DNA from: Leptolyngbyaceae cyanobacterium
GTDB lineage: Bacteria; Cyanobacteriota; Cyanobacteriia; Phormidesmidales; Phormidesmidaceae
Length of the DNA: 64,000 bases
Assembly (NCBI GenBank): GCA_965263355.1
Contig: CBDHHL010000032.1
Span: 2,848,001-2,912,000, forward strand
Reading direction: 5' to 3'
Part shown: positions 32,231-63,547 of the stretch, one piece after another
Layout: each line of letters opens with the position of its first letter
Numbering within the stretch: the first letter of the stretch is position 1
Program-made: the position numbers and the translations under genes
The notes under the pieces: model-generated
Told to the model about the DNA's origin: nothing
The model's database searches: none
Seen by the model: only the letters and a program-made list of their open reading frames with translations

Positions 32231-34027
32231 ATGATGACCGTTGATTATCAACCTAATCAGACGGCTGATGTCCCAAAGGTATCTCAGCGTCCTTGTTTGG
32301 ATCTTACCGTTGTTATTCCTACCTATAACGGAGCTGAGCGTATTCCTCAGGTGCTGGATGCGCTGAAAATTCAGCAAGATATGGATGGCATCCGTTGGGA
32401 AGTGATTGTCTGCGACAATAATAGTTGCGATCGCACCGTCAATATAGTTTTAGATTATCAGCATACCTGGTTGCAAGATGTGCCACTACGTTACTGCTTT
32501 GTTGCAGAGCAGGGGGCAGCTTTTGCTAGACAGCGAGGAGTGGTAGAAGCCAGTGGTCATATAGTTGCATTTCTTGATGACGATAACATTCCGACCCGTA
32601 ATTGGCTAAGCAACGTACATCGTTTTGCCCAGGCTTATCCCAAAGCTGGTGCATTTGGTAGTCAAATCCATGGTGAATTTCACGGTGAGTTGCCCGAAGG
32701 GTTTGAGCATATTGCCTGTTTTTTAGCGATTGTTGAACGAGGTAATCAGCCTCATCTTTATCAACCTAAATCTAAAATTCTTCCGCCAGCGGCAGGCTTA
32801 GCAGTTCGTCGTTCAGCTTGGCTGAAAGTAGTTCCAGAACGTCTGTTTTTAAATCACAAAGGCAAATCAGCAGGCTTGGCTAGTGAAGATCTAGAAGCAC
32901 TACTGCATATTCAAAGAGCAGGTTGGGAGATTTGGTATAACTCTGATATGGTGGTTACCCATCAAATTCCTGATAGCCGTTTGACACGAGAATATTTAAT
33001 TTCTCTTCTGCGCTGTGTGGGACTTAGTCGATTTTACATTCGATTTTTAGGGGCTAAAGATTGGCAAAAGCTTTTTAAGGTGCCAGCCTACATTGCCAAT
33101 GACCTACGTAAGCTAGCGCTTCATTATATGAAAAATGGACTGCAACAATGCGATCTCGATATTGTTGCTGCTTGTGAACGTTCACTACTCACAAACACAG
33201 TTGTTAGTCCTGGCTTTTTGATGAGAAAGGCATTTCAGGATTTTTGGCAGAATCAGCGAGACAACAAGCAACTTCCCGAACGTCAACAATGGTTACGACG
33301 CTTGACAGATGCATTTGAAGGTAAGCAGCTAGATCTATATCAGCAAGCGGTTGTTTGCCTTGACTCATCACAGTCAGTAAATCTTGATAATACAGTTCTG
33401 TCTCAAATTGAAATCTTACTCAGATTGCGACAAAAATCTCCAGATCTTCCACCAATTTCTCCAGCTCAATTCTTTCCAACAGCTGAGCGCTATGGCCTGA
33501 TGCGTACGCTTGATCGGCGTGTGATTCAGCAGGTCTGCCAAACTTTGGAGGGACGTTCTCTGGAGGCAGCATATTCTTTAAATCTCTCTGCAGCTAGTGT
33601 TTGTGACCCTAGCTTTCCTGTTTTTCTAGAAGATCAGCTGAGACGTTATTGTGTAAATCCTGAGAATATATACTTTGAGATTTCTGAGTCTGTGATGATG
33701 GACTCATTATCTGAAGTTGCAGTCTTGATTGGGCGTATAAAACCCCTGGGGCTACGTGTGATTATTGACGAGATTGGTTATGTTGCGGAGTCATTGGATT
33801 ACATGGCGCAGTTGCCGATTGATTGCTTGAAACTAAGCAAAGAGCTAATTAGCCAACCTAAACGTTCAAGTTTAGCTTTGTCAAATTGGATTAAATTTAG
33901 TCGTCAAAGGGGGATTCAGTTGGTTGCCAAAGGTGTGGAAACACAGGCTGAAGTAGATTATCTGAAAAGTTTAGGCATTGATTATCTTCAAGGGTATTAC
34001 TTGTCAGAGCCATTTTCGTTTACTTAA
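32231..34027 (+). CDS. HpsE-like GT2 glycosyltransferase fused to a degenerate EAL domain
   Basis: VVIPTYNGAER, DNNS, QGAAFARQRG, FLDDDN, LPPAAGLAVRR, SEDLE; C-terminal EILLR, SLNLS, FEISES, VAKGVET, LQGYYLSEP. Confidence 0.88.
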   Translation: MMTVDYQPNQTADVPKVSQRPCLDLTVVIPTYNGAERIPQVLDALKIQQDMDGIRWEVIVCDNNSCDRTVNIVLDYQHTWLQDVPLRYCFVAEQGAAFARQRGVVEASGHIVAFLDDDNIPTRNWLSNVHRFAQAYPKAGAFGSQIHGEFHGELPEGFEHIACFLAIVERGNQPHLYQPKSKILPPAAGLAVRRSAWLKVVPERLFLNHKGKSAGLASEDLEALLHIQRAGWEIWYNSDMVVTHQIPDSRLTREYLISLLRCVGLSRFYIRFLGAKDWQKLFKVPAYIANDLRKLALHYMKNGLQQCDLDIVAACERSLLTNTVVSPGFLMRKAFQDFWQNQRDNKQLPERQQWLRRLTDAFEGKQLDLYQQAVVCLDSSQSVNLDNTVLSQIEILLRLRQKSPDLPPISPAQFFPTAERYGLMRTLDRRVIQQVCQTLEGRSLEAAYSLNLSAASVCDPSFPVFLEDQLRRYCVNPENIYFEISESVMMDSLSEVAVLIGRIKPLGLRVIIDEIGYVAESLDYMAQLPIDCLKLSKELISQPKRSSLALSNWIKFSRQRGIQLVAKGVETQAEVDYLKSLGIDYLQGYYLSEPFSFT

Positions 34028-34096
34028 ACTCCGACTACCTAATTTCTTAGCCTTGACCGATGACTGTTGTTAAGCACGAAGATATCAACGAGTTTT

Positions 34097-35278
34097 ATGA
34101 TCGGTTTACCCAAAAAAATTGCAGTTCTTTTGCATGACCTTGACGCAGGAGGTATGCAAGCTATTTGCTTACGCCTGTTGACCTCATTGGCAAAACTACC
34201 TGCAATTGAACTGGAACTTATTTTGGCTAAGCGAACTGGCCTCTATATCAATCAACTGCCAGCTTCCGTCAAAGTTATTGACTTAGATGTCCCTTTTGAG
34301 CTGCGCCTTAAATGTATGTATAAGTTAACCCTGGCGCTCTCAAGCTACTTACGCTCTGCTCAGCCAGACATTATTCTGTCTAATTTACCCTTTGTTAACT
34401 TCGTTACAATTCTGGCTAAACTTGTTTCGCGAAGTTCAAGTATGTCTATCCTTGTGGAACATACCCTACCTCTCAAGCACTTCTTACAAAAGCAAGATAA
34501 TCAAAAGGTAAACGGTCAATTCCCTATTATTACTCATCAACTGGTTCGTTTACTTTATCCTTACGCTAATCATATTGTTGCCCCATCCACTGGTATTGCT
34601 TGTGAACTAGGGCAGTTTATTAAATTTAGACCTGAGCAGCTCAAAGTTATATACAATCCTGTTATAGATTCACAGCTTGAGGAAAAGTCTAGGATTAAGC
34701 CCGAGCATCCATGGTTTCGCTCAGGTGAACCGCCAGTATTACTGGCAGTTGGGAGGTTAGCTACCCAAAAAGACTATGAAACTCTTATTAGAGCTTTTGG
34801 TCAAGTTTCACAAACAAGGACTGTTCGTCTGATGATTCTTGGTGAGGGGGAGTTGCGGCCTCAATTAGAAGATTTAATCCAATCACTAGAACTTAAGCCC
34901 AATGTTGCCTTACCCGGTTTTGTGGGCAACCCCTACTCATACATGCGTGCATCATTTGCATTTATATTGTCTTCTATTTGGGAAATTTTGCCAACGGTGC
35001 TTATTGAAGCTCTAGCCTGTGAATGCCTGATAATATCTACTGATTGTGACTATGGCCCGGCTGAAATTCTTGAGGATGGAAAGTATGGGACGTTAGTTCC
35101 TGTAAATGATCCAACGACTCTAGCTAAAGCTATAGAAGCAATTTTTTCTTCATCCTATGAACAACTTTATCAACGGAAACAGATGTTGAAAGAGCGAACA
35201 AATGTATTTTCAACTGATTACTCGATTGAACAATATCTAAATCTTATGCAATTAGGTCGAGAGAATATTAATGAATAG
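34097..35278 (+). CDS. GT4 glycosyltransferase
   Basis: VIYNPV, AVGRLATQKDYETLIRAF, GFVGNPYSYM, SSIWEILPTVLIEALAC. Confidence 0.9.
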   Translation: MIGLPKKIAVLLHDLDAGGMQAICLRLLTSLAKLPAIELELILAKRTGLYINQLPASVKVIDLDVPFELRLKCMYKLTLALSSYLRSAQPDIILSNLPFVNFVTILAKLVSRSSSMSILVEHTLPLKHFLQKQDNQKVNGQFPIITHQLVRLLYPYANHIVAPSTGIACELGQFIKFRPEQLKVIYNPVIDSQLEEKSRIKPEHPWFRSGEPPVLLAVGRLATQKDYETLIRAFGQVSQTRTVRLMILGEGELRPQLEDLIQSLELKPNVALPGFVGNPYSYMRASFAFILSSIWEILPTVLIEALACECLIISTDCDYGPAEILEDGKYGTLVPVNDPTTLAKAIEAIFSSSYEQLYQRKQMLKERTNVFSTDYSIEQYLNLMQLGRENINE

Positions 35279-35342
35279 AAATTAAAGAAGTATCCGTAAA
35301 GCAGCGCAATGAGTTAATCAGTTCTTCTACATCAACATTATT

Positions 35343-36323
35343 ATGACAATTGATTTTACCCTGGTAATCCCCACCTATAATGGCGCAAAAAGGCTACCTT
35401 CCCTTTTGGATAGCCTGCTTGCACAAACTGATTTAGATCCGCTCTGCTGGCAAGTTATCGTTGTTGATAACAATAGCACTGATGCGACATCGCAAGTTTT
35501 GAAAGAGTATCAACAGACTTGGACAAGTAGTACAACCAATAGTTCCATAGAATATGTACTAGAAACTCAGCAAGGTGCAGCGTTTGCTCGTCAACGAGGC
35601 ATGCAGCTAGCAAAAAGCGAGCTAGTTGGCTTCCTTGATGATGATGTAGTTCCTGCTTCTGACTGGATTGCATCTGCTTATCAATTTGGACTAACGCATC
35701 CTAACGTAGGTGCCTATGGAGGACGCATCATTGGCAAGTTTGAAGTGGCACCACCCGAGAACTTTAAGAGAATTCAGTCGTTCCTCGCTATTCGAGACCG
35801 TGGTAGTTCCCCGCATCTCTACAAACCAGAGAATTTGATTTTGCCTCCTTCAGCAGCTTGGGTAATTAAAAAACAAGCTTGGCTAGAAACTGTTCCACCC
35901 CAGCCTAAGTTGAGTGGGCGAACGGGAAAATCCATGGTTCAGGGAGATGATTATGAACCGTTACTCCATATTCATAATGCAGGTTGGGAGATTTGGTATC
36001 ATCCTGGGATGTATGTTGAACATCATATTCCAGCGAGTAGACTGCAAGATGAGTATTTGCTTGCTCTCAGTCGTGGCTGTGGCTTATGTATTTTCCAATT
36101 ACGCCTGATCACATCTAAAAATTGGGAGAAGCCGATTACGCTTATCAAAATTGTGTTAGGAAACTTAAATAGAACGATATTACACTTCTTTAAATATCGT
36201 CAGCAGCTAAGGTCAGATATTGTAGCCCAGTGTGAGATGAATTTTTTTATAAGTGGTTTTTTGAGTCCTGCCTACTATTTTAGCCGTTTACTCAGAGATG
36301 CGTTCTCTCGGCAAGGTGTGTAG
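35343..36323 (+). CDS. HpsE-like GT2 glycosyltransferase (hormogonium polysaccharide type)
   Basis: LVIPTYNGAKRL, VVDNNSTD, QGAAFARQRG, FLDDD, RIQSFLAIRDRG, AGWEIWY. Confidence 0.88.
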   Translation: MTIDFTLVIPTYNGAKRLPSLLDSLLAQTDLDPLCWQVIVVDNNSTDATSQVLKEYQQTWTSSTTNSSIEYVLETQQGAAFARQRGMQLAKSELVGFLDDDVVPASDWIASAYQFGLTHPNVGAYGGRIIGKFEVAPPENFKRIQSFLAIRDRGSSPHLYKPENLILPPSAAWVIKKQAWLETVPPQPKLSGRTGKSMVQGDDYEPLLHIHNAGWEIWYHPGMYVEHHIPASRLQDEYLLALSRGCGLCIFQLRLITSKNWEKPITLIKIVLGNLNRTILHFFKYRQQLRSDIVAQCEMNFFISGFLSPAYYFSRLLRDAFSRQGV

Positions 36324-36411
36324 ATGCTACTCTCTAACGCTGTGTGACCCTTGATGTTTATGCATTCTATACTGTCAGTTATTTGCTTAATGTTCTCTGG
36401 ATAATCAAAAT

Positions 36412-37602
36412 ATGGTCGTTATTAGAAAAAAGCCAATCATATTGCTGTATGGAGGTTTTTGGGCCGCTAACCGGTGTGAATATCTCGTAGAATTTTTAAT
36501 CGCTTCAGGATATTACGTATCTGGTGTTTTTCCAGATTTTTATTCTAGTGAAAGACAGCAAAGAAATTTTCTGACCAAAGTGTTTAGAAAAATAGCTTTT
36601 CCAGTTTTTGCCCTGATTGAGCTATTTGTGAAAGCTAGTTTTGCTGATGTTATATATATTTTACCTGGAAACGTAAGCCTCTTTAAATATGCCTTGCTAG
36701 CCGCAAGAGTTTTCAAAACTAGGATTATATTAGAGTTCTATGACAGTATGTATACTCACTATATGGAGAATAAAGGTGCAGGATCTATTGCTCCAGAAGA
36801 ACTCAAAAGAGTTAAGCAAGACAATGTTAACTTAAATCCTGAAAATGAAAAGCTTGCTATTAGAAAAGCAGACTATATTATTCATGTATCTAACTGTGAG
36901 CTTGGTTATCTCTCTAAAGTTTTAGAAATAAATATCGATTTTGATAAAGTCTTTGTGGTCCCTATCTTTTGTTCTGATAGGCCTGCCTATGCTAGAGAGT
37001 TTATGCAAGATGGCGTATTTAGGATATGTTGGTGGGGAAGCTTTTTGCCGATGCATGGCTTAGACTATATCCTGATTGCATTGAATAAGCTGAAGCAGGA
37101 TGGACTAAATTTTGAGTGCGACTTATTTGGAGCTTATTCTGCTGGCTCACGAGCTTACTTTTTTGAGAAATATAGGCAAGAAATTGCATCTCAGTCACTT
37201 GACTCGCATGTTAAGCTCAGGCGAGATTTAACGTTTATTGATGGCAAATTACCTGAATACCTTATAAGCCATTGTGATTTATCTTTAGGAATTTTTGGTG
37301 ATACTTTGAAAGCTGAGAGTTCTGTACCAAATAAGTTGATTGAATCCTTATCAATGGGAATTCCGACACTTACTCGCTCTTCTCCGGTGTTAGAGGAGTT
37401 TTTTGATGTGCAGGCAGACTTTTGGACTTGTCAACCTTCTCCAGAATCCATAGCCCAAGCAATTTCGGATGTTTACCATCAAAAATCGCATCCGGTACAT
37501 TGGGGGAAAACTCGAGATAAGGTTCGCAACACCTTTAATGCTGAAACCTATAGAAAGGTAGTTAGCAAGGTTTTGAATCAGGTGAATCAGGACTTACTCT
37601 AG
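36412..37602 (+). CDS. GT-B fold (GT4-like) glycosyltransferase
   Basis: ICWWGSFLPMHG, CDLSLGIFGDT.KA.SSVPNKLIESL. Confidence 0.8.
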   Translation: MVVIRKKPIILLYGGFWAANRCEYLVEFLIASGYYVSGVFPDFYSSERQQRNFLTKVFRKIAFPVFALIELFVKASFADVIYILPGNVSLFKYALLAARVFKTRIILEFYDSMYTHYMENKGAGSIAPEELKRVKQDNVNLNPENEKLAIRKADYIIHVSNCELGYLSKVLEINIDFDKVFVVPIFCSDRPAYAREFMQDGVFRICWWGSFLPMHGLDYILIALNKLKQDGLNFECDLFGAYSAGSRAYFFEKYRQEIASQSLDSHVKLRRDLTFIDGKLPEYLISHCDLSLGIFGDTLKAESSVPNKLIESLSMGIPTLTRSSPVLEEFFDVQADFWTCQPSPESIAQAISDVYHQKSHPVHWGKTRDKVRNTFNAETYRKVVSKVLNQVNQDLL

Positions 37603-37636
37603 GTGTAAACTTTTTGACGTTTGCTTTAGTTTCTCT

Positions 37637-38917
37637 ATGCAAAGAAGTGTTTTTGTCCTACCCCGTGGTATTGAACTAGGAGGCGTAACTATCTGGTCGC
37701 TCAAGATGGTACGTCATCTAACTGACAGCAACTATTCTGCAAATATTTTAAGACATCAGGAAAGTAGCCCTGTTGATGATGATTTGTTGATTGCTCAGCT
37801 ACCAATCCTTAGCTGTCCAGGTAAACCTGCTTGGTCAGCCAATGTAAAGGATATCAAGACATATTTGCCAACCTATCAGCAAACATTGCCTGCCACGTTG
37901 ATTCCGAATTGGACTTTTGGAACCTATGCAACTTGTGCTGCTTTGAGTAGTACGCAGGCTGATGGTATGCGTGTCATTGGTATTGCCCACAGTGATGAGG
38001 ATATTTTTTATGCTTGGTTACAATATTACGAGCCGATTATTCATACGTATGTTGCCGTCAGTGAAAAAATTGCTACTGTTTTGAAGGCGCGATTACCCGA
38101 GCGTTCAGATGATATTGTTGTTAGGTCCTGTCCGGTCGATGTACCACCTGACTTTAATCGTATACCTGCTGATGGCAACAAGGTACCGATCAAGTTAATG
38201 TATGCAGGCAGAGTTCAAAATCAGCAAAAGCGTATCTCTGATTTGTTGATACTTGTTAAGCTACTAACCCAAAAGAAAATTGACTTTAAACTGACTATTG
38301 TGGGTGATGGTGGTGAAAGGCAGTGGTTGGAGAAACAGTTTGCGAGATTGATGGGGTCTGACGCGTGCCAAAAGGTTGTTTTTGTGGGTACAGTAAATCC
38401 TGATCAGATGCCCCACTATTGGCGATCAGCTGATATTGGTTTACTTGTTTCTGATTTTGAAGGGACTTCAATTTCTATGCTGGAGTCGATGGCCCAGGGT
38501 TGTGTTCCCATAGTCACTGATGTGAGTGGTGTTAAGGCTGTCATCCAGGATGGGGAAAATGGGTTTAAGGTTCCCATTGGGGATATGACTACCATGGCCA
38601 ATATTATTCAGCGCTTGCACACCGATAGGCAGCTATTACAGCAACTGGGACGGCAGGCTCATCTTAAGGTGCTTCATAACTATGCGTTTGCTGACTACAT
38701 TCCTTGGTTTGCGGAGTTGACAGAGCAGGGTTGGCAAAAACCACCAAGAAATTGGCCACCCGAACGGCCCTTATTGCCTGATCCGTTACCAACGCAGCCA
38801 CAATCAACACGCTACAGACGCGCTATTAATAAATTGAAAAAGTATCTATGGAATACGAAACTAATGATAAAACTTTATGGAGTTAATGCAATCCCATCTT
38901 TACTTAGTTGGGACTGA
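37637..38917 (+). CDS. GT4 glycosyltransferase
   Basis: YAGRVQNQQKR, IVGDG, SDFEGTSISMLESMAQGCVPIVTDV. Confidence 0.9.
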   Translation: MQRSVFVLPRGIELGGVTIWSLKMVRHLTDSNYSANILRHQESSPVDDDLLIAQLPILSCPGKPAWSANVKDIKTYLPTYQQTLPATLIPNWTFGTYATCAALSSTQADGMRVIGIAHSDEDIFYAWLQYYEPIIHTYVAVSEKIATVLKARLPERSDDIVVRSCPVDVPPDFNRIPADGNKVPIKLMYAGRVQNQQKRISDLLILVKLLTQKKIDFKLTIVGDGGERQWLEKQFARLMGSDACQKVVFVGTVNPDQMPHYWRSADIGLLVSDFEGTSISMLESMAQGCVPIVTDVSGVKAVIQDGENGFKVPIGDMTTMANIIQRLHTDRQLLQQLGRQAHLKVLHNYAFADYIPWFAELTEQGWQKPPRNWPPERPLLPDPLPTQPQSTRYRRAINKLKKYLWNTKLMIKLYGVNAIPSLLSWD

Positions 38918-39024
38918 TCTAGTTACCTAACCTAAGTTTATTAAAAGGCTAAGGTAACCCTATGGATGAGCAATCATGGTACAACATTCATGGCTGTTAA
39001 TCAAGACATCGCAGGGAGTGTTCG

Positions 39025-40266
39025 ATGACGCATTCATCTTGTCGGTTTTGCAAGACACCTCTACATTACACATTTGCTAACTTGGGTGTTTCACCTATTT
39101 CAAATGATTACCTTGACCAGGCTCATCTTAAGCAGGCTGAAAAATTTTATCCATTACATGCATATATATGTGAAGAGTGTTTACTGGTTCAACTCGAAGA
39201 ATTTGAGTCTCCCGAGCATCTTTTTGGAGACGGTGACTATGCTTATTTTTCCTCCTATTCTGAAAACTGGCTGAATCATTCCAGGGCGTATACCGATTTA
39301 GTGATCGAGCGATTTGGCTTAAACGCTAATAATCTGGTAATCGAAATTGCAAGTAATGACGGCTATCTTCTGCAATATTTTGTCAAACAAGGTATTCCCG
39401 TGCTTGGTGTAGAGCCTGCTTCTAACGTGGCAGCCGCAGCTGTGGAGAAGGGGGTGCCAAGTTGGGTTAAGTTTTTTGGTGTCGAGACTGCAAAAGAACT
39501 AGTGGCCGCCAATAAACGGGCTGATCTTTTATTAGCTAACAATGTTTTGGCTCATGTGCCAGATTTGAATGATTTTGTTGCGGGGATGCAGATTGTCCTG
39601 AATCTGCAGGGGATTATTACAGTTGAGTTTCCTCACTTGCTGCGGTTAATTCGAGGTAATCAGTTTGATACTATCTACCACGAACATTTTTCCTATTTTT
39701 CCTTTTTAACTGTTGAGAAAATTTTTGCCCATCATAGGCTCACACTGTTTGATGTAGATGAGTTGTCAACCCATGGAGGATCGCTGCGTATCTATGCCCG
39801 CCATGTGGATGATTCTAGCCATCCTATTACTGAGAGAGTGAAGTTGCTGAGACAGAAAGAATTGGAAGCAGGTCTTACCGAAGTTCAGACGTATTTGAAT
39901 TTTGAAGAACAGATCAGGTCTACTAAACGCAAGCTGCTCAGTTTTTTAATTGAAGCTAAAGCAGAAAAAAAGGTGATTGTTGGTTATGGTGCTCCTGCCA
40001 AGGGAAATACCTTGCTTAATTACTGCGGTGTGGGGACAGATTTTCTCGACTATACGGTAGATTGCAATCCTCATAAGCAATCATTATTCTTGCCTGGTAC
40101 CCGTATTCCAATTTTTGCGCCTGATCGTATTTTTGAGACAAAGCCCGACTATGTGCTGATATTACCTTGGAATATTAAGGATGAGATCATGGGGCAGATG
40201 TCAGGGATCCGTGAATGGGGAGGGAAGTTTGTTACGCCAATTCCTGAGGTACAGATTTGCCCATAA
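39025..40266 (+). CDS. NDP-sugar C-methyltransferase (TylC3/NovU-like)
   Basis: CRFC...CEECLLVQL Zn site, YAYFSS, EIASNDGYLL, FDTIYHEHFSY, HGGSLR, GYGAPAKGNTLLN. Confidence 0.88.
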   Translation: MTHSSCRFCKTPLHYTFANLGVSPISNDYLDQAHLKQAEKFYPLHAYICEECLLVQLEEFESPEHLFGDGDYAYFSSYSENWLNHSRAYTDLVIERFGLNANNLVIEIASNDGYLLQYFVKQGIPVLGVEPASNVAAAAVEKGVPSWVKFFGVETAKELVAANKRADLLLANNVLAHVPDLNDFVAGMQIVLNLQGIITVEFPHLLRLIRGNQFDTIYHEHFSYFSFLTVEKIFAHHRLTLFDVDELSTHGGSLRIYARHVDDSSHPITERVKLLRQKELEAGLTEVQTYLNFEEQIRSTKRKLLSFLIEAKAEKKVIVGYGAPAKGNTLLNYCGVGTDFLDYTVDCNPHKQSLFLPGTRIPIFAPDRIFETKPDYVLILPWNIKDEIMGQMSGIREWGGKFVTPIPEVQICP

Positions 40267-40374
40267 AGTGTGTAGGGGAGCAGGGATATGGTAGAGAAAT
40301 AGTTAGAGTCCATGATTGCGTCCCCACTTTAAAGGCAACATGTAAACAACTAAACAATTGAATCTACAAGACTG

Positions 40375-41097
40375 ATGCAATGCTTTAATAATCAGACTGC
40401 TGTAGTAACGGGTGCAAGTAGTGGAATTGGGCGGGCAACAGCGCTGGCTCTTGCACAGCAGGGTGCTAATCTCTGTTTGCTGGGTAGGAACAAGTCTGCC
40501 CTTGAAGCTGTTGTCAAGCAAGCTGAATCATATAATGTACAGGCAATTTCCTGTCCTTTTGATTTAGCTGAGATCGCATCTACTCAAGCCATGCTAGCTG
40601 CCCTTAAACAGGTGCAAGAGGTGCATATCCTTATACATAGTGCTGGTACTTTCACACTGGGTAGTTTGTCAAATTCTTCTCTGGTGTCGTTAGACTATCA
40701 ATATAAGGTGAATGTTCGAGCACCCTACTTGATCACGCAAGTGCTGCTATCCAGAATGCCTGCGTTCAATGCCCAAATTGTGTTTGTTAATTCAACTCTA
40801 GGGTTGGTGGCGAAGGGGGGAGTTGGTCAATATGCTGCTTCTAAACATGCGTTAAAGGCAATTGCTGATAGTTTACGTGAAGAACTCAGTTCTCAGGGGA
40901 TTCGAGTTTTGAGTGTCTATCCTGGACGAACAGCCAGTCCTATGCAAGCCCAGGTTCATGTCTTAGAAGGTAAGCCTTATTTGCCCGATAGCCTCATGCA
41001 GCCTGAAGATGTTGCGGCGACTATTGTGCACACCTTGGGGTTACCAAAGACTGCTGAGGTGACCGATCTAAGGCTAGTTCCTCGTAAGAATCAATAG
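40375..41097 (+). CDS. SDR-family oxidoreductase
   Basis: TGASSGIG, YAASK catalytic motif, YPGRTASPMQ. Confidence 0.9.
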   Translation: MQCFNNQTAVVTGASSGIGRATALALAQQGANLCLLGRNKSALEAVVKQAESYNVQAISCPFDLAEIASTQAMLAALKQVQEVHILIHSAGTFTLGSLSNSSLVSLDYQYKVNVRAPYLITQVLLSRMPAFNAQIVFVNSTLGLVAKGGVGQYAASKHALKAIADSLREELSSQGIRVLSVYPGRTASPMQAQVHVLEGKPYLPDSLMQPEDVAATIVHTLGLPKTAEVTDLRLVPRKNQ

Positions 41098-41396
41098 TCA
41101 TCAATAGTTCTTCTCAATTTATACCAACAATTAACTACAGCGAATGTAGCAGATGTTTGACAATATGAGAGTGAAATAAGAGTTAGGTGTTGTTGACTAA
41201 ATGGAGAGCGCGTCAGCCTTCTAATGGCAAATATTCTATGATTTGAGGGGGGTATAGATTATTTGCCGTTGATCTGAAAATACTAGGGTTAGTCATTCTG
41301 ATACCCTTCAAACTTTTGTCAGTCAATCAGGTGAGTGTCTTAAGAGTTAGTCATTTGATAGTTTGTACAAGCTCTTTAAAGCGGAGGAGTTAACTG

Positions 41397-42329
41397 GTGT
41401 TACCAAATTTCCTGGTTATTGGCGCAGCGAAGGCAGGGACTACATCTCTCCACAGTTATCTGACCCAGCATCCAGAAATTTATATGAGTTCTGTCAAGGA
41501 ACCGGGCTACTTTATGTTTGCTGACGATGGCCTTACCTATGAAGGCCCGAAAGATATAGAGGTATTACAAAATCTGGGTTTTGATGTTACGGATTTGGAT
41601 GTTTATCAAAGCTTATTTAGGGATACCTTGGATGCAAGGGCTGTAGGTGAGTCAACTCCTTTCTATCTATATAGTGCCAAAGCTTGTCAACGGATTAAAT
41701 ATCTTATTCCTGATGTAAAGCTTATTGCGATTTTACGCAGTCCTATGGAGCGTGCTTATTCTAACTATATGCATCAAGTGAATTGGGGACGTGAAAGTCT
41801 TCGAACGTTTGATCAAGCACTTCAAGCAGAAGAGGATCGGATTGCGCATAACTGGCACCCGGTTTGGCATTATAAAGAACAGGGATTTTATTTTGCTCAG
41901 CTGAAGCGATATTTTGATGAATTTCCTCGCAGTCAGATTAGGGTTTACCTTTATGAGGATCTAAATCGAAATGCCACTGCATTAATGCAAGATATTTTTC
42001 AGTTTCTTGGTGTTGATGATAGCTTTTGTTCAGATGTAACTGTTAGACATAACAGTTCAGATAGTGCAAAGAAAATAGCTGACAATGTGAGGCATGAGGC
42101 CTTGCTTCAGCAATTTAGGCGTCTTAAACCCATGACTGCAAGGCTTATGCCAGATGCTTTGCAGCGTCTGCTTGGTAAAGGATTGGGGGCTATAATCAGA
42201 AAAAATGTCAGCTATACTACTCCGCCATTCACAGCAGCTGTTCGAAGCAAACTACTGTCAGCGTATCGCGATGATATTCTCAAACTACAGGAGTTGATTC
42301 AAAAAGATCTTGCTGACTGGCTGGTTTAA
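41397..42329 (+). CDS. Sulfotransferase (PAPS-dependent)
   Basis: IGAAKAGTTSL 5'-PSB loop, KEP, GESTPFY, LRSPMERAYS 3'-PB motif. Confidence 0.9.
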   Translation: MLPNFLVIGAAKAGTTSLHSYLTQHPEIYMSSVKEPGYFMFADDGLTYEGPKDIEVLQNLGFDVTDLDVYQSLFRDTLDARAVGESTPFYLYSAKACQRIKYLIPDVKLIAILRSPMERAYSNYMHQVNWGRESLRTFDQALQAEEDRIAHNWHPVWHYKEQGFYFAQLKRYFDEFPRSQIRVYLYEDLNRNATALMQDIFQFLGVDDSFCSDVTVRHNSSDSAKKIADNVRHEALLQQFRRLKPMTARLMPDALQRLLGKGLGAIIRKNVSYTTPPFTAAVRSKLLSAYRDDILKLQELIQKDLADWLV

Positions 42330-42735
42330 GGAGATTTAAAGCTTTTTGGGATTTTAATGCTAGAAGTTAGCTAGACATTGAAATATGGGTTTTTTCAAAT
42401 CTCACTGATAAATGTCAATCAAGATTCAAGCAGTTCAGAACTTTAAAGACTTGGTAAAGTGGAGTTGATAGCTTCGGATAGTTTTTGTTTTCTCAAATTA
42501 GAATATGCGCAGCTGAGATGGGAAGCTTTTAAAGGTACTTTTTACTACCTTAAAGTGCTTTAAATTACGTAGGGTAATCTCTGAAATCTTCTTCTTATGT
42601 TGAGTTTGCTATGTTCTAAGTAGCAATTATGCCTTGATAAGTCGGTCTTTAGTGCGTGCCTAAATATTTTTCTACGAAAAATCAACTGTATAAATTTGAA
42701 GTGCGATCGCTTTTATTAACGATATTGATTTAATT

Positions 42736-45700
42736 ATGGTTAAGCAGGTATCTCATCTTAAATATTCATCTCAGCAGAGTGATTCTTCTGTTGTAGAGAC
42801 GTCAGGATCTGGTGATAAATCTGATCAGCTTGTAATCTCATCTACCTTTACGGCAGAGCCTATTCAGGAAACTTTGCAGTTTTGGCTGGCGCAGCTTGGG
42901 TTGCCATGGGTAGTTTCGTTTGCTGATTATAATCAAGTTTTTCAGCAACTTCTCAATCCGACGAGTCTGATGGCTCAAAATCAGGGGGGAGTGAATCTTG
43001 TTTTACTGCGTATTGAAGATTGGGGCCGATTTCAATCGTTGTCTGGTGATGATCGCTTAGACGATGACTCAGACGAGTGGAAACTATCCCTAGAACACAG
43101 TGCCCAGGACTTTATCGATGCGATGGGCACTGTCGCTCGTCAATCGTCTACGTCTTATTTAGTTGCGTTTTGTCCCAGTAAACCTGGAATATCAGCTGTC
43201 CATGATCAGTGGTATACACGCTTGGAGGGCACAATTGCAGAGGCCCTGGCCCCCTTGCAAAGTGTATATCTGATACGCTCGGCAGATATTTTCTCTCGCT
43301 ATCCTGTCCCTGACTACTATGACGAAAGTCGAGATCGCGTAGGTCATATTCCTTACACTGATCTTGCATTTGCGGCTTTAGGGACCGTGTTAGCACGTGA
43401 AATTTACGCGCTTAAGCGCCCGCCATATAAGGTAATTGCCCTTGATTGCGATCGCACTCTATGGAGCGGTATCTGTGGTGAGGATGGTCCGTTAGGGGTT
43501 GCAGTTGATGAGCCTTTCAAAGCATTACAGTCGTTTATGGTGCGTTGTAGTGAGTTAGGACTGTTGCTTTGTTTGTGTAGTAAAAATGTCGAAGAAGATG
43601 TTTGGCAAGTCTTTTCTCAGCGGGATGATATGGTGCTCAGCCGTGACCATATTGTAGCTTGGCGAATTAATTGGGAACCTAAATCGGAAAATTTGAGATC
43701 ACTGGCTGCAGAACTTAATCTGGGCCTGGATAGCTTTATCTTTGTTGACGATAACCCGGTTGAATGTTCTGAAGTGCAGGCACGTTGCCCAGAGGTATTA
43801 ACACTACAGCTGCCCAATGATCCTGATAAGATTCCGGCTTTTTTAGATCATATTTGGCCTTTCGATCTGCTCAAAGTCACGGATGCTGATAAACAACGCA
43901 CTCAGCTCTATCAGCAAAACCGGAAACGTAGCAAGTTTGAGCAGGAATCTATTGACTTCCAATCCTTTATCCAAGGATTGCAGATTGATATTCAGATTAT
44001 GCCACCGTTGCCATCGCAGATGGGGCGTGTGGCTCAGCTTACCCAGCGGACCAATCAGTTTAATGCCACTACCCGTCGTCGTACTGAGTCTGAGATTCAG
44101 CATTGGTGTGAGGCCCAAGGCTATGGCTGTCGGGCGGTCGTGGTTAAGGATCGCTTTGGCGATTATGGTTTAGTTGGGGTCATGTTGTTTCAGTTGCAGG
44201 ATGATACGTTAGAAGTAGATACCTTGTTGTTAAGCTGCCGGGTTTTAGGGCGTGGTGTGGAGTATCGGATGGTTGCTCACCTTGGTGAGATTGCAACCAA
44301 ACAAAATCTCTCATCTGTTGTTATTAAGTATATTCCTACACCTAAAAATAAGCCCATGGACAAATTTTTATCATCCATCGGCCATCCATATTGCCACCCT
44401 CAATCAAGTTATACCAGCTATAGTTTCCCCACCGAGTTTGCCAGTAATCTTACTTTTGAAGTTAGTGAACTTGAAAATCAGCAGCATGTTAATGCTGCTG
44501 GTACAGCATCTACTAAAAAGACAGCAACTTCTCTGACCACTTCCTCTGAGATAGGTATTAACAAGAAATCTGAAAGATGGAATCATATTGCTGTAGCCTT
44601 GACAACACCCGCTCAGATTGTAGAAGCTGTTAATCAAGCTTTTCAGCGCCAAAATACATATACCTCCTCTACTAATAATCCATGGGTGGCACCGCGGACT
44701 GAAATAGAAACGACCCTAGCGAATATATGGTGTAAGACGCTACGGCTAGATTGTGTCAGCGTGCAGGATGATTTCTTTGCCCTGGGTGGAAACTCGCTTC
44801 TGGCGGTCGATGTTTTTACCCGTATTGAAGATATCTTTCGAAGACGTTTACCGATTACGACTCTTTTGAACGCGCCTACGATTGAACAATTGGCGCAAAT
44901 TGTAGAGCAGGACGATAGTCAAGATGTTTGGAATCCTCTTGTACCTGTTAGGGAGAACGGAGAGCGTCCTCCCCTATTTGTTGTGCATGGAGGCTTTGGA
45001 GATGCCTTAAGTATTGCTCAGATTGCACCACATCTGAGTAGCAATCAACCCTTTTATGCCTTGAGAGGGGTAGGCTTAGATGGTAAGCAGCTACCCCTAG
45101 AGAATCTTGAAACAATGGCGTCCAAGTATCTAGAAGCCATTAAAGTAGTTTTCCCCCAGGGGCCTTATCGCTTAGCAGGTCAATGTTCTGGGGGGATTGT
45201 CGCCTTTGAAATGGCCCAACAACTGATAGCACAAGGTGAGCAGGTCGACTTTTTAGGGTTAATTGATACACCCTACCCTCAATTAGAAAATCATTTTAAT
45301 AATCGTTACCGCTATTACCACCATTTCCCTACCTATCGCTACGGGCAGTGGGATATAAATTACTATCTTTTTACTGCAATTGTCTATTTATTCCGTAAAT
45401 GGCCTCATATGTTTCGATATCATTACCGAGAGTTGGTTAAGCAAAGCTGGCAGGGACGCTTAGAATATGTAGTCAGTTATTTGCGTAAGCTAATAGAAAT
45501 TCTAAGTCGTCGGTTAGAGGTGCGTAAAAAACATATAGATGTAGCGCCTTCATCTTCTCATCATCATTCTTCTAAGAGAGATACTCAAACTAATCCTGTA
45601 GCGAGTGGATTAACAGCTTCTTCTGAAGATCTGCCACAAATATCCAGCTCATCCCAAGAAAATTTTCGTTGGGTGAAAGATCGTTTTTTTGAAGTCTTCT

Positions 45701-45987
45701 TGAGAGCTCAAAAGCGTTATATGCCCAAAGCCTATCCTGGCAAGATTCATTTCTTTTTAACAACCTTAGATACCTATGTTTCTAAGCACCATCCTTATAA
45801 TCCACGCTCTTTTGTCCTGAACAAAAATATAGTGGCGTCGGTCGCTCAGCTTCGATTTGGCTGGGATAAGTTAGTAGAGCCTGAGAATTTTAGAATCCAT
45901 CCTATGCAGATTGAACATGATCAAATGCTTGATTTACCCTATGTTCAGTTACTAGGCAAAGCTTTAGACGAGCACTTGCAGAAATAA
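42736..45987 (+). CDS. FkbH-like (HAD-IIIC) acyl-loading protein with carrier and thioesterase domains
   Basis: ALDCDRTLWSG, SKN, FVDDNPVEC, TQRTNQFN, DRFGDYGLVG, LLSCRVLGRGVE; carrier DFFALGGNSLL; TE FVVHG..GPYRLAGQCSGG..AFEMA..EH. Confidence 0.9.
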   Translation: MVKQVSHLKYSSQQSDSSVVETSGSGDKSDQLVISSTFTAEPIQETLQFWLAQLGLPWVVSFADYNQVFQQLLNPTSLMAQNQGGVNLVLLRIEDWGRFQSLSGDDRLDDDSDEWKLSLEHSAQDFIDAMGTVARQSSTSYLVAFCPSKPGISAVHDQWYTRLEGTIAEALAPLQSVYLIRSADIFSRYPVPDYYDESRDRVGHIPYTDLAFAALGTVLAREIYALKRPPYKVIALDCDRTLWSGICGEDGPLGVAVDEPFKALQSFMVRCSELGLLLCLCSKNVEEDVWQVFSQRDDMVLSRDHIVAWRINWEPKSENLRSLAAELNLGLDSFIFVDDNPVECSEVQARCPEVLTLQLPNDPDKIPAFLDHIWPFDLLKVTDADKQRTQLYQQNRKRSKFEQESIDFQSFIQGLQIDIQIMPPLPSQMGRVAQLTQRTNQFNATTRRRTESEIQHWCEAQGYGCRAVVVKDRFGDYGLVGVMLFQLQDDTLEVDTLLLSCRVLGRGVEYRMVAHLGEIATKQNLSSVVIKYIPTPKNKPMDKFLSSIGHPYCHPQSSYTSYSFPTEFASNLTFEVSELENQQHVNAAGTASTKKTATSLTTSSEIGINKKSERWNHIAVALTTPAQIVEAVNQAFQRQNTYTSSTNNPWVAPRTEIETTLANIWCKTLRLDCVSVQDDFFALGGNSLLAVDVFTRIEDIFRRRLPITTLLNAPTIEQLAQIVEQDDSQDVWNPLVPVRENGERPPLFVVHGGFGDALSIAQIAPHLSSNQPFYALRGVGLDGKQLPLENLETMASKYLEAIKVVFPQGPYRLAGQCSGGIVAFEMAQQLIAQGEQVDFLGLIDTPYPQLENHFNNRYRYYHHFPTYRYGQWDINYYLFTAIVYLFRKWPHMFRYHYRELVKQSWQGRLEYVVSYLRKLIEILSRRLEVRKKHIDVAPSSSHHHSSKRDTQTNPVASGLTASSEDLPQISSSSQENFRWVKDRFFEVFLRAQKRYMPKAYPGKIHFFLTTLDTYVSKHHPYNPRSFVLNKNIVASVAQLRFGWDKLVEPENFRIHPMQIEHDQMLDLPYVQLLGKALDEHLQK

Positions 45988-46321
45988 TATTGAGATAGTT
46001 TAACGTCAATTCGGAATAAACAAGAGCATAGAAAGGAGGGCCGTTAAGCTGAGGTGACTCATCACTAAGGGTTGCTTAAACAGGCTTACCCCGAACTCAG
46101 GTGAACTAGGAAACTAAACATTTACATATCCATGTTCAGTGAGGTATCCAAAGCTCTTGATAAATCTGATGTAGTAACTTGAGGATAGAGCAGCAGCAAG
46201 GCAGAAACTTTTCACTGCCCAATTTCGTCATCTTAATGTTAACAGGGTGAATCTCGATATCCTAGATAGGATGGTTTCTCATAAGCATATTCATAGCTTT
46301 ATTCGTATCTTGTTGAAGATA

Positions 46322-47257
46322 ATGAATGTTGATTTACCGCTGATTTCAGTTATTATTCCAGCCTATAACTGTCAAGGGACCATTGTTGAAACATTGGGTT
46401 CTGTTTTTCAACAAACATACTCAAATATGGAGGTTATTGTTGTAAATGATGGTTCTACTGACGGCACTTTAGAAATTCTGAAGAACTTTCAGGATTCTCG
46501 GCTACAAATTGTAACACAGCCTAATGCTGGCGTTTCTGTGAGCCGTAATCGTGGAATTAACCTTGCAAAGGGTGATTTTATTGCTTTTCTGGATGCTGAT
46601 GACCTCTGGTTGTCAAATAAATTAATCGAGCAGATAATGGCTTTGCAAACAGCACCTCACGCAGCTGTTGCCTATAGCTGGACAGATTATATTGATCAAG
46701 CTGGTAATTTTCTGCGAAATGGCTACTACTGTAACTTTCAGGGGAACGTTCATCGTCGATTATTACTTGGTTGCTTTCTTGAGAGTGGTTCCAATCCTTT
46801 AATTCGTCGTAGTCTATTAAAGACTGTTGGTGGCTTTGATGAGTCTTTGATCACCTGTGAAGACTGGGATCTATGGATTCGTCTAGCCCTAAAATATGAG
46901 TTTATTGTTGTTCCACAGGTACATGTACAATACAGGGTTGTAACCAACTCTAAATCCTTTCTCTTAGATAAACACGAAGCAGGTGGTTTAACCGTTATCA
47001 ATAAAGCATTTTTGCAAGCATCAGATTCTGTCGAGCCAATGAGGTCTAAAGCGTTATCTAACTTTTATAAGTATCTGCTCTTTAAACTATTAGATGCACC
47101 TAAGACCTCCGGTTCGAAGGAGATGCATGGGCCAAAAACTGCCCTTAGATACCTAAGCCTTTCCGTGTACCATAATCCTCAGTTATTACGACAGATGACA
47201 GTTATTCTTTCGGCACTTATCAAAATTCTAGCTATATCAGTGCAGCCATTCTATTGA
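46322..47257 (+). CDS. GT2 glycosyltransferase
   Basis: ISVIIPAYN, VNDGSTD, FLDADDLW, ESGSNPLIRR, EDWDLW. Confidence 0.92.
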   Translation: MNVDLPLISVIIPAYNCQGTIVETLGSVFQQTYSNMEVIVVNDGSTDGTLEILKNFQDSRLQIVTQPNAGVSVSRNRGINLAKGDFIAFLDADDLWLSNKLIEQIMALQTAPHAAVAYSWTDYIDQAGNFLRNGYYCNFQGNVHRRLLLGCFLESGSNPLIRRSLLKTVGGFDESLITCEDWDLWIRLALKYEFIVVPQVHVQYRVVTNSKSFLLDKHEAGGLTVINKAFLQASDSVEPMRSKALSNFYKYLLFKLLDAPKTSGSKEMHGPKTALRYLSLSVYHNPQLLRQMTVILSALIKILAISVQPFY

Positions 47258-47335
47258 TTGCGTAGTGTCCAAGTAGGTGTTGATTATAGACACTGCCGAC
47301 AGTAACTCTGAAAAACTGCACTATTAACAACGGCT

Positions 47336-48502
47336 ATGTCAATTAGTAAAAAAAGATTGAAAATTCTGTTGTATGGTAATTTTTTTGGGGCTTATCGCTC
47401 TCAAAATTTAGTGAAGTATTTATTGGACTCAGGTTATCGAGTGTCGATAATATCGCCTGAGTTTTTCTATGAAAGAGGTGAAAAAAAGGATATTTTTGCC
47501 AAAGTTCTGCGTTTGATTTTTTCAGGTTATTACCTGATTGAGCTTTGTATTAAAGCAGCTTTAGCAGATGTCATTTATTTATTGCCACTAAATAGTGAGC
47601 TGATTCGTCCAGTTGTGTGGACTAGCCGATTATTTAGAACTAAATTGGTGGTCGAGATGTATATCTCAGCCTACGATACATTAGTCCGTGAGAAACAGGA
47701 GGTGCCTGCAGGAAGTGCTGCAGCACAGTTACTGTATAGGAATGATCGACTTGCCCTCACTGAAGCTGACTATATCGTTCATCTGTCTCGCTATGAGTTG
47801 AGTTATTGGGAAAAGATCCTGGATGTCAAATTGTTAGATCAAAAGCTTTTGATTGCCCCTTTATTTTGTGAATCGAGGTTACAAATGTTTCGGCATGAGA
47901 GAATTCCTGCACAATGCTTACATATTTGCTGGTGGGGAACTTTGATCCCCAGTCACGGAATTTCCAATATTCTTGAAGCTCTTCATATATTACAGATTCG
48001 AGGCTTAGATTTTTCGTGTCAGTTGTTTGGTATTCCAGCTAAAGGCAAAGAGTATTTAGTTAAAACCTATAAAACTCAAATTGATCAGTTAGAACTAAGT
48101 GAAAAGGTCACCTTACGTCAAGATTTGAAGTTTACGGATAGCTCATTGCCTCAGTATCTTGTCGAAAATTGTGATCTTGCTTTAGGAATTTTTGGCGATA
48201 CTGAAAAAGCCCAGTCTACTGTTCCTAATAAATTGGTTGAAGCTTTAGTGCTTGGCATTCCTAGTTTAACAATGTCTACGCCTTCTCTTGACGAATTTTT
48301 TGACCCTGAAGTAGATTTATGGACCTGTGAATCTACCCCTGAGATCATTGCTAATACCATTAGTCAAATTTATGAGAAAACTATTTATCAGGTTGATTGG
48401 GCTAAAACAAGAGAAAAAGTGTGTCAAATATTCTCTGTTAACAAGTACCATCAAATGGTTGAACAGGTTTTAAATACTGTTGTTTATGATATTAATCACT
48501 AA
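47336..48502 (+). CDS. GT-B fold (GT4-like) glycosyltransferase, paralog of 36412..37602
   Basis: ICWWGTLIPSHG, CDLALGIFGDTEKAQSTVPNKLVEAL. Confidence 0.8.
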   Translation: MSISKKRLKILLYGNFFGAYRSQNLVKYLLDSGYRVSIISPEFFYERGEKKDIFAKVLRLIFSGYYLIELCIKAALADVIYLLPLNSELIRPVVWTSRLFRTKLVVEMYISAYDTLVREKQEVPAGSAAAQLLYRNDRLALTEADYIVHLSRYELSYWEKILDVKLLDQKLLIAPLFCESRLQMFRHERIPAQCLHICWWGTLIPSHGISNILEALHILQIRGLDFSCQLFGIPAKGKEYLVKTYKTQIDQLELSEKVTLRQDLKFTDSSLPQYLVENCDLALGIFGDTEKAQSTVPNKLVEALVLGIPSLTMSTPSLDEFFDPEVDLWTCESTPEIIANTISQIYEKTIYQVDWAKTREKVCQIFSVNKYHQMVEQVLNTVVYDINH

Positions 48503-48632
48503 TTTGACTGGGTCTTATCTAGATAACTTAGCCTACATGTTTTTTTGGGAACCTTCCTCAATTTTTGGAAAGCATTGCTTGCAAATATTTTTAGATGCTA
48601 AAGATCATTAAATAGCTCTTTATTGATAAAGT

Positions 48633-49571
48633 ATGAATTATCAAAAATCCTTGGAAAATAATGCGATTCAGTATTCAAAAATAACTTCTAAAAAATCATC
48701 TAGCTTTAATAGATTTGAAAATCTTCAAGATTATCAGTACTTAAAGAACTATCAGATTGTCGTCCTTCCAGATAGTGAAATTATAAATAACCTTTGCGTC
48801 ATCTACTGTTCTAGTCATGGTATCTATCCCGATAGGAAGTCTGCTTTCTATAAGCATGTTGTCGAGCAGGATAGATATGAATGGAAACGTAATATGATAA
48901 AAAATGCTAAAAAGTCTATTTTTATCAGAGATTTGAAGAAGCAATGGTATTTAGAAGGAATTAATTCATCCATTAACTCACTTAGTAAGTTATTAGACTT
49001 TTTGCAAGAAGAGATTGCTGATATGAATCTAATATGTATTGGTAATTCAGCTGGAGGATATTTAGCGACTCTCTTAGGTTGTGAATTGAAAGCTTCTCAT
49101 GTATTTACCTTTTCAGGTCAGTTTTCTCTGTATCCTTATCTAGAGAATCAGAAAAATCCAGTTTTGATGAAATATCAAGGAACACAGCTAGCTCAATCTT
49201 TTTATTCATTGGCGTCTAGATTGAAATCAAGTCAAGTTCCAATTTTTTATTTTTATCCTATCGGTAGTCAATCTGATCAAAAACAAGTTTTAACGCTGAA
49301 GAATATATCTAATATTTATAAAATCCCATTCAAAGTGAGTAAACATGGTAAAACTTGTTTACCTATTAATTTTTCAAACTTGTTTAGGATGAATGTATCA
49401 GAACTGAAAAGTTTAAGTGAAAAGTTTTCAGATGGCGTTCATCCCATATGCTTTTCAATTGAAATATCAGGGTATAGAAAAACATTTATGTTTTTGATTG
49501 AACGATATTTCAAACAATGTTGGCGCTATTGCAAATTAAATCTGAAAATTTTTCCAAGCATTAGAGCTTGA
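48633..49571 (+). CDS. Putative alpha/beta-hydrolase-fold protein
   Basis: IFIRD..KQWYLEG, GNSAGGY nucleophile elbow, FSGQ, late His; AT-rich. Confidence 0.6.
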   Translation: MNYQKSLENNAIQYSKITSKKSSSFNRFENLQDYQYLKNYQIVVLPDSEIINNLCVIYCSSHGIYPDRKSAFYKHVVEQDRYEWKRNMIKNAKKSIFIRDLKKQWYLEGINSSINSLSKLLDFLQEEIADMNLICIGNSAGGYLATLLGCELKASHVFTFSGQFSLYPYLENQKNPVLMKYQGTQLAQSFYSLASRLKSSQVPIFYFYPIGSQSDQKQVLTLKNISNIYKIPFKVSKHGKTCLPINFSNLFRMNVSELKSLSEKFSDGVHPICFSIEISGYRKTFMFLIERYFKQCWRYCKLNLKIFPSIRA

Positions 49572-49638
49572 TGCCTTACTAGATGGCTTGATTCAAGTTG
49601 TCTTTAATGTCTGGGTGTAATTGTTTGAGCGCATTGAG

Positions 49639-50523
49639 TTAATGAATTGACGCAGTTTTCATAGGTAGAATAGCTAAATTTCTTTCCTCTTCATTGAAAA
49701 CGGAGATTTGATCCTTATCTAACTTTTTTTGACGTGAAATTTTGCCTGATTTCAATACAACTGAATCATCTCCGTATCTAAGGATGCCCGTGGTTTTAGA
49801 GACTGTGTATTCCTCAGAAAATGTAGCTTGGGTTTGGAGAAATGATTTGAATTTATTTAAAGACTTATCTGTTTGGTGCAGTAAATCTTCATACTTTACG
49901 AATAAACAACGCTCCTGATCGTCGATTTGCTGTGCTCGTTTTTGTAGGAAGTCGAGACGTTCTTGATAATACTGAAACCAGGTATCGAAATTTTGATATT
50001 GCCTAAGTCCATAGCAATTCTTACCAAGTTTAGCAGCACTTTCGAATGAGGCAGCCGGATCCCTTAGTAAAAAAATAAATTTGACCCATTTATTTGTCAG
50101 AATAGTATTTGATAAGTCATGGTTTCTAACTATCTTATCCATGACATAACTGGCATTGTCAAAGTCAAAAGAATTTTGGATAACAGCAGTTCTGTATATC
50201 AGCTTTTCTAGATCTTGATAGCTTGAATACGTGCAATGGCTTTCACCAAAACCCTCAATTTCAGGATTACTGTTTAGTAAATGGACGAGTAAAGAAGATC
50301 CAGAGCGCATGGGAGAGAGTACAAGTAGGTAACGTAGTTGATGGTTGCGCTTACCTAATCGATATTGAAAATAAGGTTTTAATAGTTTGTAGGCGTAAAG
50401 CTCAAATAATGTCTTGCTGGCTTGCTGGGCAAGAACTGATCTGTAGCTATTCACAAAAAATAAGCGCACCCTTTCAGGGATGCGTATTCGTATATGGAAC
50501 CTACTATTTGCTTTGGCGCTCAT
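49639..50523 (-). CDS. Sulfotransferase family protein (possible frameshift near the C-terminus)
   Basis: LSPMRSGSSLLVHLLNSNPEI.GFGE, DKIV.NH, LLRDP..S, YEDL. Confidence 0.85.
   Translation of the reverse strand: MSAKANSRFHIRIRIPERVRLFFVNSYRSVLAQQASKTLFELYAYKLLKPYFQYRLGKRNHQLRYLLVLSPMRSGSSLLVHLLNSNPEIEGFGESHCTYSSYQDLEKLIYRTAVIQNSFDFDNASYVMDKIVRNHDLSNTILTNKWVKFIFLLRDPAASFESAAKLGKNCYGLRQYQNFDTWFQYYQERLDFLQKRAQQIDDQERCLFVKYEDLLHQTDKSLNKFKSFLQTQATFSEEYTVSKTTGILRYGDDSVVLKSGKISRQKKLDKDQISVFNEEERNLAILPMKTASIH

Positions 50524-61397: not shown

Positions 61398-63547
<2,150 letters not shown>

Follow-up and report, generated by a model that had tools for sequence, protein, structure and literature searches.

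The closest described counterparts of the protein considered here come from polysaccharide synthesis and from c-di-GMP sensing. In Nostoc punctiforme, the glycosyltransferase (GT) HpsE (Npun_F0070) is encoded in the hpsE-G operon, within an hps gene order tabulated in PMC10581220, and deletion of hpsE-G is described in passages of PMC12188702 and PMC10581220 as giving an HPS-deficient, non-motile phenotype. The c-di-GMP receptors FimX and LapD of Pseudomonas and Xanthomonas are signalling proteins of GGDEF-EAL architecture whose chain has no enzymatic output; loop 6 of the EAL fold is lost in them and the Arg of the EAL motif is kept; in LapD, according to passages of PMC3032553, this Arg, directly after the motif, is centrally placed in the c-di-GMP site and the motif Glu is lost (KVL), and, according to passages of PMC3527489, FimX keeps 4 of 10 catalytic positions and the EAL of Bacillus subtilis YkuI binds c-di-GMP with a single metal. 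A GT2 and a c-di-GMP module are joined in one chain in BcsA and in the Thermosynechococcus cellulose synthase Tll0007, as passages of PMC10519070 describe, and these are processive membrane synthases gated by PilZ. In cyanobacteria, known c-di-GMP receptors are few compared with the many cyclases, and the targets mentioned in passages of PMC12448109 are PilZ cellulose synthases, candidate MshEN domains and CdgR/ComFB.

The window, that is, the whole stretch of 64,000 nucleotides that was analysed, contains a gene (32231..34027, + strand) that combines elements of these systems in a single open frame of 598 aa. The first-pass annotation had described it as an uninterrupted frame joining a full HpsE-type GT2 to an EAL domain, and both halves are recovered by profiles: the HpsE-family GT2 domain (residues 23-329; 32297..33217, +) matches NCBIfam NF038302 with 420.9 bits, for a cut-off of 300, over model positions 1-306 of 307, and the degenerate EAL domain (residues 356-594; 33296..34012, +) matches Pfam PF00563 with an E value of 4e-45. 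Unlike HpsE of N. punctiforme, the GT has an EAL at its C-terminus, is encoded away from hpsA-D and coexists with EAL-free paralogues; unlike FimX and LapD, the protein (P0001) gives no GGDEF match with Pfam and NCBIfam profiles; and unlike BcsA and Tll0007, it gives no PilZ match with Pfam profiles and contains no stretch resembling a membrane span, the peak hydropathy being 1.27 (KD, 19 residues). No break in G+C content was detected at the GT-EAL junction (0.44 vs 0.42; third positions, 0.33 vs 0.33).

An AlphaFold2 model of the fusion protein (111-row alignment) reached a mean pLDDT of 88.2 and a pTM of 0.87, and this last value, for a two-domain chain, suggests that the GT and the EAL are held in a fixed mutual arrangement. 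In the model, a long helix (residues 311-347; 33161..33271, +) extends out of the GT and into helix 1 of the EAL and may be regarded as a candidate signal-carrying linker; K333, D337 and Q340 are conserved along it in 113, 107 and 98 of 116 fusions, respectively. In a structure search the model folded closest to RbdA (Z 28.6), FimX (Z 27.5) and LapD (Z 24.9), whereas YkuI, which is not known to have phosphodiesterase activity and has no GT, is distant (Z 20.1, 21% identity). The GT half resembles the GT-A enzymes TarS (Z 20.4), WrtF (Z 19.5) and TarP (Z 19-20), and its residues DDD 116-118, SED 218-220 and H244 are invariant (116/116 fusions); these correspond to the metal-binding DxD (D116-D118), the ED of the acceptor site (E219-D220) and the late His.

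The architecture is that of a whole family, already on record and restricted to one lineage. Both domains are present in 116 of the best 120 homologues listed, the four EAL-free ones having been excluded ahead of alignment, and a random or chimeric fusion can be discarded, since so many of them share both; the sources include Leptothoe, Adonisia, Phormidesmis, Romeria, Sphaerothrix and Leptolyngbya spp. When the order of Leptolyngbya sp. Heron Island J (G001) was surveyed, with seven candidates scored per genome, the full-length fusion was obtained in 58 of 172 genomes and a partial one spanning the junction in 2 more; it was not found in the other 112, many of them incomplete, although an hpsA match was obtained in 149 of the 172. 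In a phylum sample scored with three candidates per genome, the fusion appeared in 2 of 401 genomes, the reference genome and another of the same order. A search of 1.84 billion representatives placed nine full-length fusion clusters on top and EAL-free HpsE proteins below, so that clustering at 50% identity leaves the fusion in no fewer than 9 clusters. Database names of the members are either HpsE or EAL domain-containing protein, and JGI gives both domains.

The EAL is under purifying selection, with a constraint looser than that on the GT: in eight pairs drawn from 43 distinct fusion genes, with dS < 1.2 in both domains, dN/dS (Nei-Gojobori) was 0.08-0.34 for the EAL and 0.04-0.24 for the GT, the former exceeding the latter in 8/8 pairs. 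The first-pass annotation had held that absence from relatives, a chimeric assembly or a neutral dN/dS would speak against its reading, and the recurrence in the order and these ratios point the other way. An assembly chimera was discarded given the 58 full-length fusions and the clusters at 50% identity, as was a neutral relic given an EAL dN/dS well below 1; a relic or artefact, which the loss of motifs taken alone would accommodate, is also at odds with the uniform G+C and is hardly credible.

For the EAL, the motif register was set by alignment to RbdA, PA0575, MucR and MorA, and all the motif calls of the first-pass annotation were reproduced: EILLR (residues 394-398; 33410..33424, +), with E394 at metal 1 and R398 as a nucleotide contact, SLNLS with N451, FEISE with E483, DEIGYV (513-518; 33767..33784, +) at an eroded loop 6 instead of DDFGxG, KLS (534-536; 33830..33838, +) instead of KID, with K534 kept and the metal-2 Asp lost, VAKGVET with K567, and QG at 587-588. 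The codon at 33929..33931 (+) reads AAA, which places Lys567 where the strand-7 Glu is expected, a residue that is labelled the general base and that we take to correspond to RocR E352. In passages of PMC5301497 the equivalent Glu is described as a metal ligand; for PA3825, metal 1 is assigned there to Glu39, Asn98, residue 130 and Asp160, metal 2 to Asp161, Asp183 or Glu217, and the setting of the DDFGTG loop to dimer helices 5 and 6. Transferred by alignment and spacing, these ligands become E394, N451, E483 and D513 for metal 1, and positions 514, 536 and 567 for metal 2.

Sites were compared between 121 fusions and 36 other EALs, the latter being those of ids P0221-P0266 in which the EAL match covered over 200 residues. 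The four metal-1 ligands are all found in 114/121 fusions and in 34/36 other EALs (E394 in 120/121 fusions), whereas the complete metal-2 trio D514+D536+E567 occurs in 0/121 fusions vs 31/36 other EALs, so that the catalytic degeneracy claimed from one sequence extends, as an incomplete two-metal active site, to every member of the family. The window protein has E514, S536 and K567 at the metal-2 positions; among the 121 fusions, Lys occupies position 567 in 108, Thr in 6 and Glu in 2 (Glu in 33/36 other EALs), position 514 is acidic in 94, K534 is kept in 120 and D536 in 8. In loop 6, D513 alone is kept family-wide (118/121), and the FG pair is retained in 10/121 fusions vs 35/36 other EALs. 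LapD loses the Glu of the EAL motif, as noted above, whereas in the fusion family site 1 is kept whole and it is metal site 2 that is lost.

The polar nucleotide contacts follow a different course. The five-residue pocket Q372, R398, E/D570, G588 and P594 is whole in 115/121 fusions, and individually Q372 and D428 are present in 121/121, and R398 and E/D570 in 119/121; one member, P0113, has lost the nucleotide pocket as well. When positions conserved to 85% or more among the 36 other EALs were scored for retention in the fusions, 24/37 were retained in the N-terminal half, 5/18 around strands 4-5 and 9/14 at the C-terminal end, compared with 0/12 in loop 6 and helix 5, 1/3 in strand 6 and 0/3 in helix 6. 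As read from these alignments, the pattern is a targeted one: catalysis and the classic dimer face have been lost and the ligand site is spared, and the combination of catalytic loss and kept pocket (115/121) is, at the level of sequence, the one by which FimX- and LapD-type receptors are recognized. Residues conserved specifically in the fusions are L355, F362, Q392, G422, R425 and T426.

The nearest EALs in the carrier genomes belong to REC/PAS-GGDEF-EAL proteins of the RbdA/DgcE-like subclass, with DDFGSG, KID and AE intact, and these genomes also encode intact GGDEF and EAL enzymes. RbdA (PA0861) and the DgcE-like PAS-GGDEF-EAL proteins are the best match of the fusion in both sequence and fold, although they keep the DDF, KID and AE that the fusion has lost. 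In a tree of 67 EALs (FastTree, midpoint root, with long branches), 27 fusion rows and P0244, a 269-aa protein that is possibly a fusion fragment, formed one group with support 99; in a quick GT tree all 21 fusion GTs likewise formed one group (support 97), and both trees fit a single fusion event. The first branch of the fusion EAL group (P0117, P0123 and P0244; support 98) retains Glu567 and has already lost DDFG, which suggests, tentatively, that the loop was lost earlier and the Glu-to-Lys change came later. Further degenerate EALs were seen in the larger proteins P0256, P0251 and P0266, the first of which has a Lys at the same strand-7 position, reached independently of the fusion group.

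With a probability of roughly one half, the EAL serves as a receptor that binds c-di-GMP without hydrolysing it and gates the glycosyltransferase of its own chain. According to this reading, an HpsE-type GT, soluble or membrane-peripheral, would add one sugar to a surface polysaccharide; the EAL of an active PAS-GGDEF-EAL phosphodiesterase of the RbdA/DgcE-like subclass would have been fused once to its C-terminus, and would afterwards have shed the metal-2 ligands along with loop 6 and the dimer helices, the strand-7 Glu changing to Lys later, with the pocket for the nucleotide and the ligands of metal 1 retained. Since metal 1 and the pocket are kept and metal 2, loop 6 and the dimer helices are lost, c-di-GMP is expected to be bound with one metal, by a monomeric domain, and left uncut, the lack of hydrolysis following from known EAL chemistry. 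Lys567 may take the position left vacant by metal 2, adjacent to Asp513 and the phosphate, the fusion-specific residues at the EAL start and at 422-426 may contact the GT, and the signal would pass through the linker helix and tune GT activity. The sign of the effect leans only slightly to inhibition, which is hinted at by the gliding that is released in Leptolyngbya boryana, a species that may lack the fusion, once the cyclase Dgc2 is lost; passages of PMC10581220 report, however, that total c-di-GMP barely changed on dgc2 loss and that overexpression of a phosphodiesterase gave no motility, which counts against the gating reading.

Some of the same sites can be read otherwise. The retained set belongs partly to the barrel core and was possibly kept for folding, which counts against a receptor, and the degenerate EALs YdiV and BluF are not known to bind c-di-GMP. 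An EAL of that kind, devoid of nucleotide binding and retained for structure or protein interaction, would account for the mean identity of just 37% among fusion EALs, for the pocket lost in P0113 and for an EAL dN/dS above that of the GT; it is nevertheless improbable, as the polar pocket residues have no obvious folding role and are near-invariant despite this divergence, and the structural match to YdiV is far weaker (Z 18.8 vs 28.6). The Lys at position 567, a family-specific gain in 108/121 members, might instead pair with an extra phosphate charge in a receptor for pGpG, 3'3'-cGAMP or c-di-AMP; in PA3825 bound to pGpG the equivalent Glu sits next to the phosphate in the metal-2 site, which is vacant (passages of PMC5301497), and FimX-EAL binds pGpG (passages of PMC3527489). 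Such a ligand seems quite improbable when it is considered that the donor subclass is a c-di-GMP phosphodiesterase and that E570, G588, Y589 and P594, which we take, in part, to be the guanine-side residues, match those of c-di-GMP enzymes. Equally faint is the case for a slow, atypical phosphodiesterase working with one metal, with K567 and K534 replacing metal 2 and c-di-GMP being drained beside the GT: metal site 1 and K534 are intact, position 514 is mostly acidic, and isolated FimX-EAL has very low but present activity (passages of PMC3527489), but characterised EALs need two metals and a DDFGTG loop set by dimerisation (passages of PMC5301497 and PMC13492106), and the second site, the loop and the dimer face are all lost in the fusions.

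The relation of the fusion to the hps pathway was approached through gene order. In an Anabaena locus (L011), hpsA, B and C were recognized by NCBIfam and are followed by D, E, F, G and H, named by position, as were the E, F and G genes used for comparison. The fusion is nearer to the E-position than to the F-position gene in 27/27 loci. A second HpsE-family gene lies at +1 or +2 downstream in 18/27 loci, and such genes cluster with F-position genes in a 33-row group (support 99); among the 25 loci whose downstream sequence reaches 0.9 kb or more, 7 show no such gene within two genes. An hpsG-like gene is found downstream in 9/27 loci, six of them with a direct E-F-G run, and in 3/4 carrier genomes (G001, G003 and G435) the hpsG-position protein finds its best genome-wide match behind the fusion. 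No hpsA adjoins the fusion in the 27 loci, and hpsA-B-C-D-H is contiguous elsewhere, without E-F-G, in G001 and G004 (the stretch in G450 ends after D); the fusion therefore looks like the head of a relocated hpsE-F-G-like run. In the quick GT tree, whose deep forks are weak, the fusion group (97) adjoins the hpsE of a canonical hpsA-H locus, G289 (93), and the notion of a gene unrelated to the hps operon was dropped given this tree and the gene order. Tandem hpsA copies were observed at G435:C5:2253246-2265133, G450:C11:1855697-1867683 and G436:C125:44892-56588.

This second HpsE-family gene also bears on whether the EAL could bind c-di-GMP and signal outward, as FimX does, recruiting or localising the GT with catalysis in the same chain unchanged, by way of the pilus and slime-secretion ring, HpsF/HpsG or a cyclase. 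The conserved pocket fits this equally well, FimX and LapD act through protein partners (passages of PMC3032553 and PMC10519070), and an hpsF-like gene is the usual neighbour; however, the seven loci without one within two genes, the confident single-chain packing of the model and the fusion-specific residues beside the linker point to an internal contact, and outward signalling appears rather unlikely. The link to gliding slime proposed in the first-pass annotation holds in part. It is favoured by the hpsE-F-G-like order, whereas in 3/3 genomes inspected hpsA is preceded, at a distance of 7-8 kb, by an hpsE-like gene without EAL, and coordinates place such a gene 6-9 kb from hpsA in 9 more; because of this copy, the product of the fusion may not be gliding slime. 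The EAL-free hpsA-linked gene scores 352-363 bits against the Anabaena E gene, compared with 307-323 bits for the fusion. Carrier genomes hold several HpsE-family genes, the EAL-free copies scoring up to 484 bits with NF038302 vs 421 for the fusion, and since the hpsF-position gene likewise passes this profile, NF038302 marks the family and not the orthologue. In N. punctiforme, hpsE-G also affects heterocyst-envelope staining, so that its product need not be slime alone, and its sigma dependence is only moderate (passages of PMC6495340). Among EAL-free relatives, P0044, P0050, P0055 and P0127 (650-670 aa) apparently contain two HpsE-type domains and are perhaps hpsE-hpsF fusions, and P0146 (591 aa) joins an HpsE-type N-terminal half to another partner domain, its C-terminal half giving no EAL profile match.

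In the window, the fusion heads a variable glycan cassette (34067..51726, + strand, with 49639-50523 on -) recognized by profile matches, which includes GT4s, a C-methyltransferase, an SDR, sulfotransferases and an FkbH-carrier-thioesterase protein. A second HpsE-family GT2 without EAL (35343..36323, +; NF038302, 449.5 bits) groups with the hpsF-position gene, and a GT2 like the hpsG-position gene lies 10 kb downstream (46247..47257, +), whereas in six relatives such a gene comes directly after the hpsF-like one; the hpsE-F-G-like run is here interrupted by the insertion of a GT4 and a 10-kb cassette. The content of the cassette varies widely among relatives, in the manner of a swapped glycan island, and some genomes carry the fusion by itself. 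The FkbH protein (1083 aa; 42736-45987, +), located near the C-methyltransferase, SDR and sulfotransferase genes, possibly serves an acyl or glyceryl decoration of the polysaccharide, and other carrier-protein enzymes occupy its spot in L004, L007, L008, L010 and L072. At the far end of the cassette (48001-52000) the G+C content falls to 0.33-0.36, compared with about 0.47 outside.

Upstream of the fusion, a decarboxylase and a cbiT-like gene are found in 20/27 loci and are probably no more than a fixed address. An alignment of 11 upstream regions revealed a conserved block containing TGTTGTAAT (31982..32018, +), about 230 nt before the start, which is putatively promoter-like; a close pattern matches 21/80 loci, the window being one base off it. 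No SigJ J-box (pattern checked against passages of PMC6495340) was found within one mismatch in 31858-32230, the window as a whole having 10 matches vs 12.7 by chance, and a sigma-70 scan remained at chance level. No riboswitch or other Rfam RNA was detected upstream of the fusion at the gathering threshold, and the window shows rRNA and tRNA only: a complete rRNA operon (18297-23293, +) with two tRNAs in the spacer, and tRNAs at 1609-1682 and 27553-27625 (-). Farther away, a pentapeptide-repeat-like gene (61368-63547, +) is split into two overlapping frames flanking a long Ala-Val low-complexity run, which reads as poly-Gln on the - strand (61801-62199), a frameshift or an assembly slip.

As regards novelty, the first-pass annotation had considered the architecture uncharacterised. 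Literature searches, mainly of open-access sources, yielded no description of a GT2-EAL fusion, and none is mentioned in the passages of PMC6717892, PMC13075795, PMC10519070, PMC12448109, PMC3527489, PMC13492106, PMC8892547, PMC2853384 and PMC12072042; that part of the claim stands, whereas rarity does not, the fusion being a whole family for which one database labels both domains. The parts, an HpsE-type GT and a degenerate-EAL receptor, are known, and their pairing, not found in print, and the unusual pattern of decay are apparently unstudied; what the present analysis adds is the family-wide site pattern, the order of decay, the selection and the synteny. A more specific proposal, that these proteins constitute a distinct class of EAL receptor, with one metal and a stand-in Lys, directly gating the HpsE step of gliding slime, is doubtful.

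The significance of the family is bounded by its confinement to part of one order, within which it offers a concrete, soluble two-domain candidate for a c-di-GMP route to gliding and slime. Should the more specific proposal hold, the family would supply the first glycosyltransferase gated by an EAL and, for filamentous cyanobacteria, the first direct connection between c-di-GMP and the making of slime, operating beside an ungated hpsE copy. It would also add to the PilZ control of processive synthases another way of gating polysaccharide synthesis, through an EAL attached to a single-step GT.
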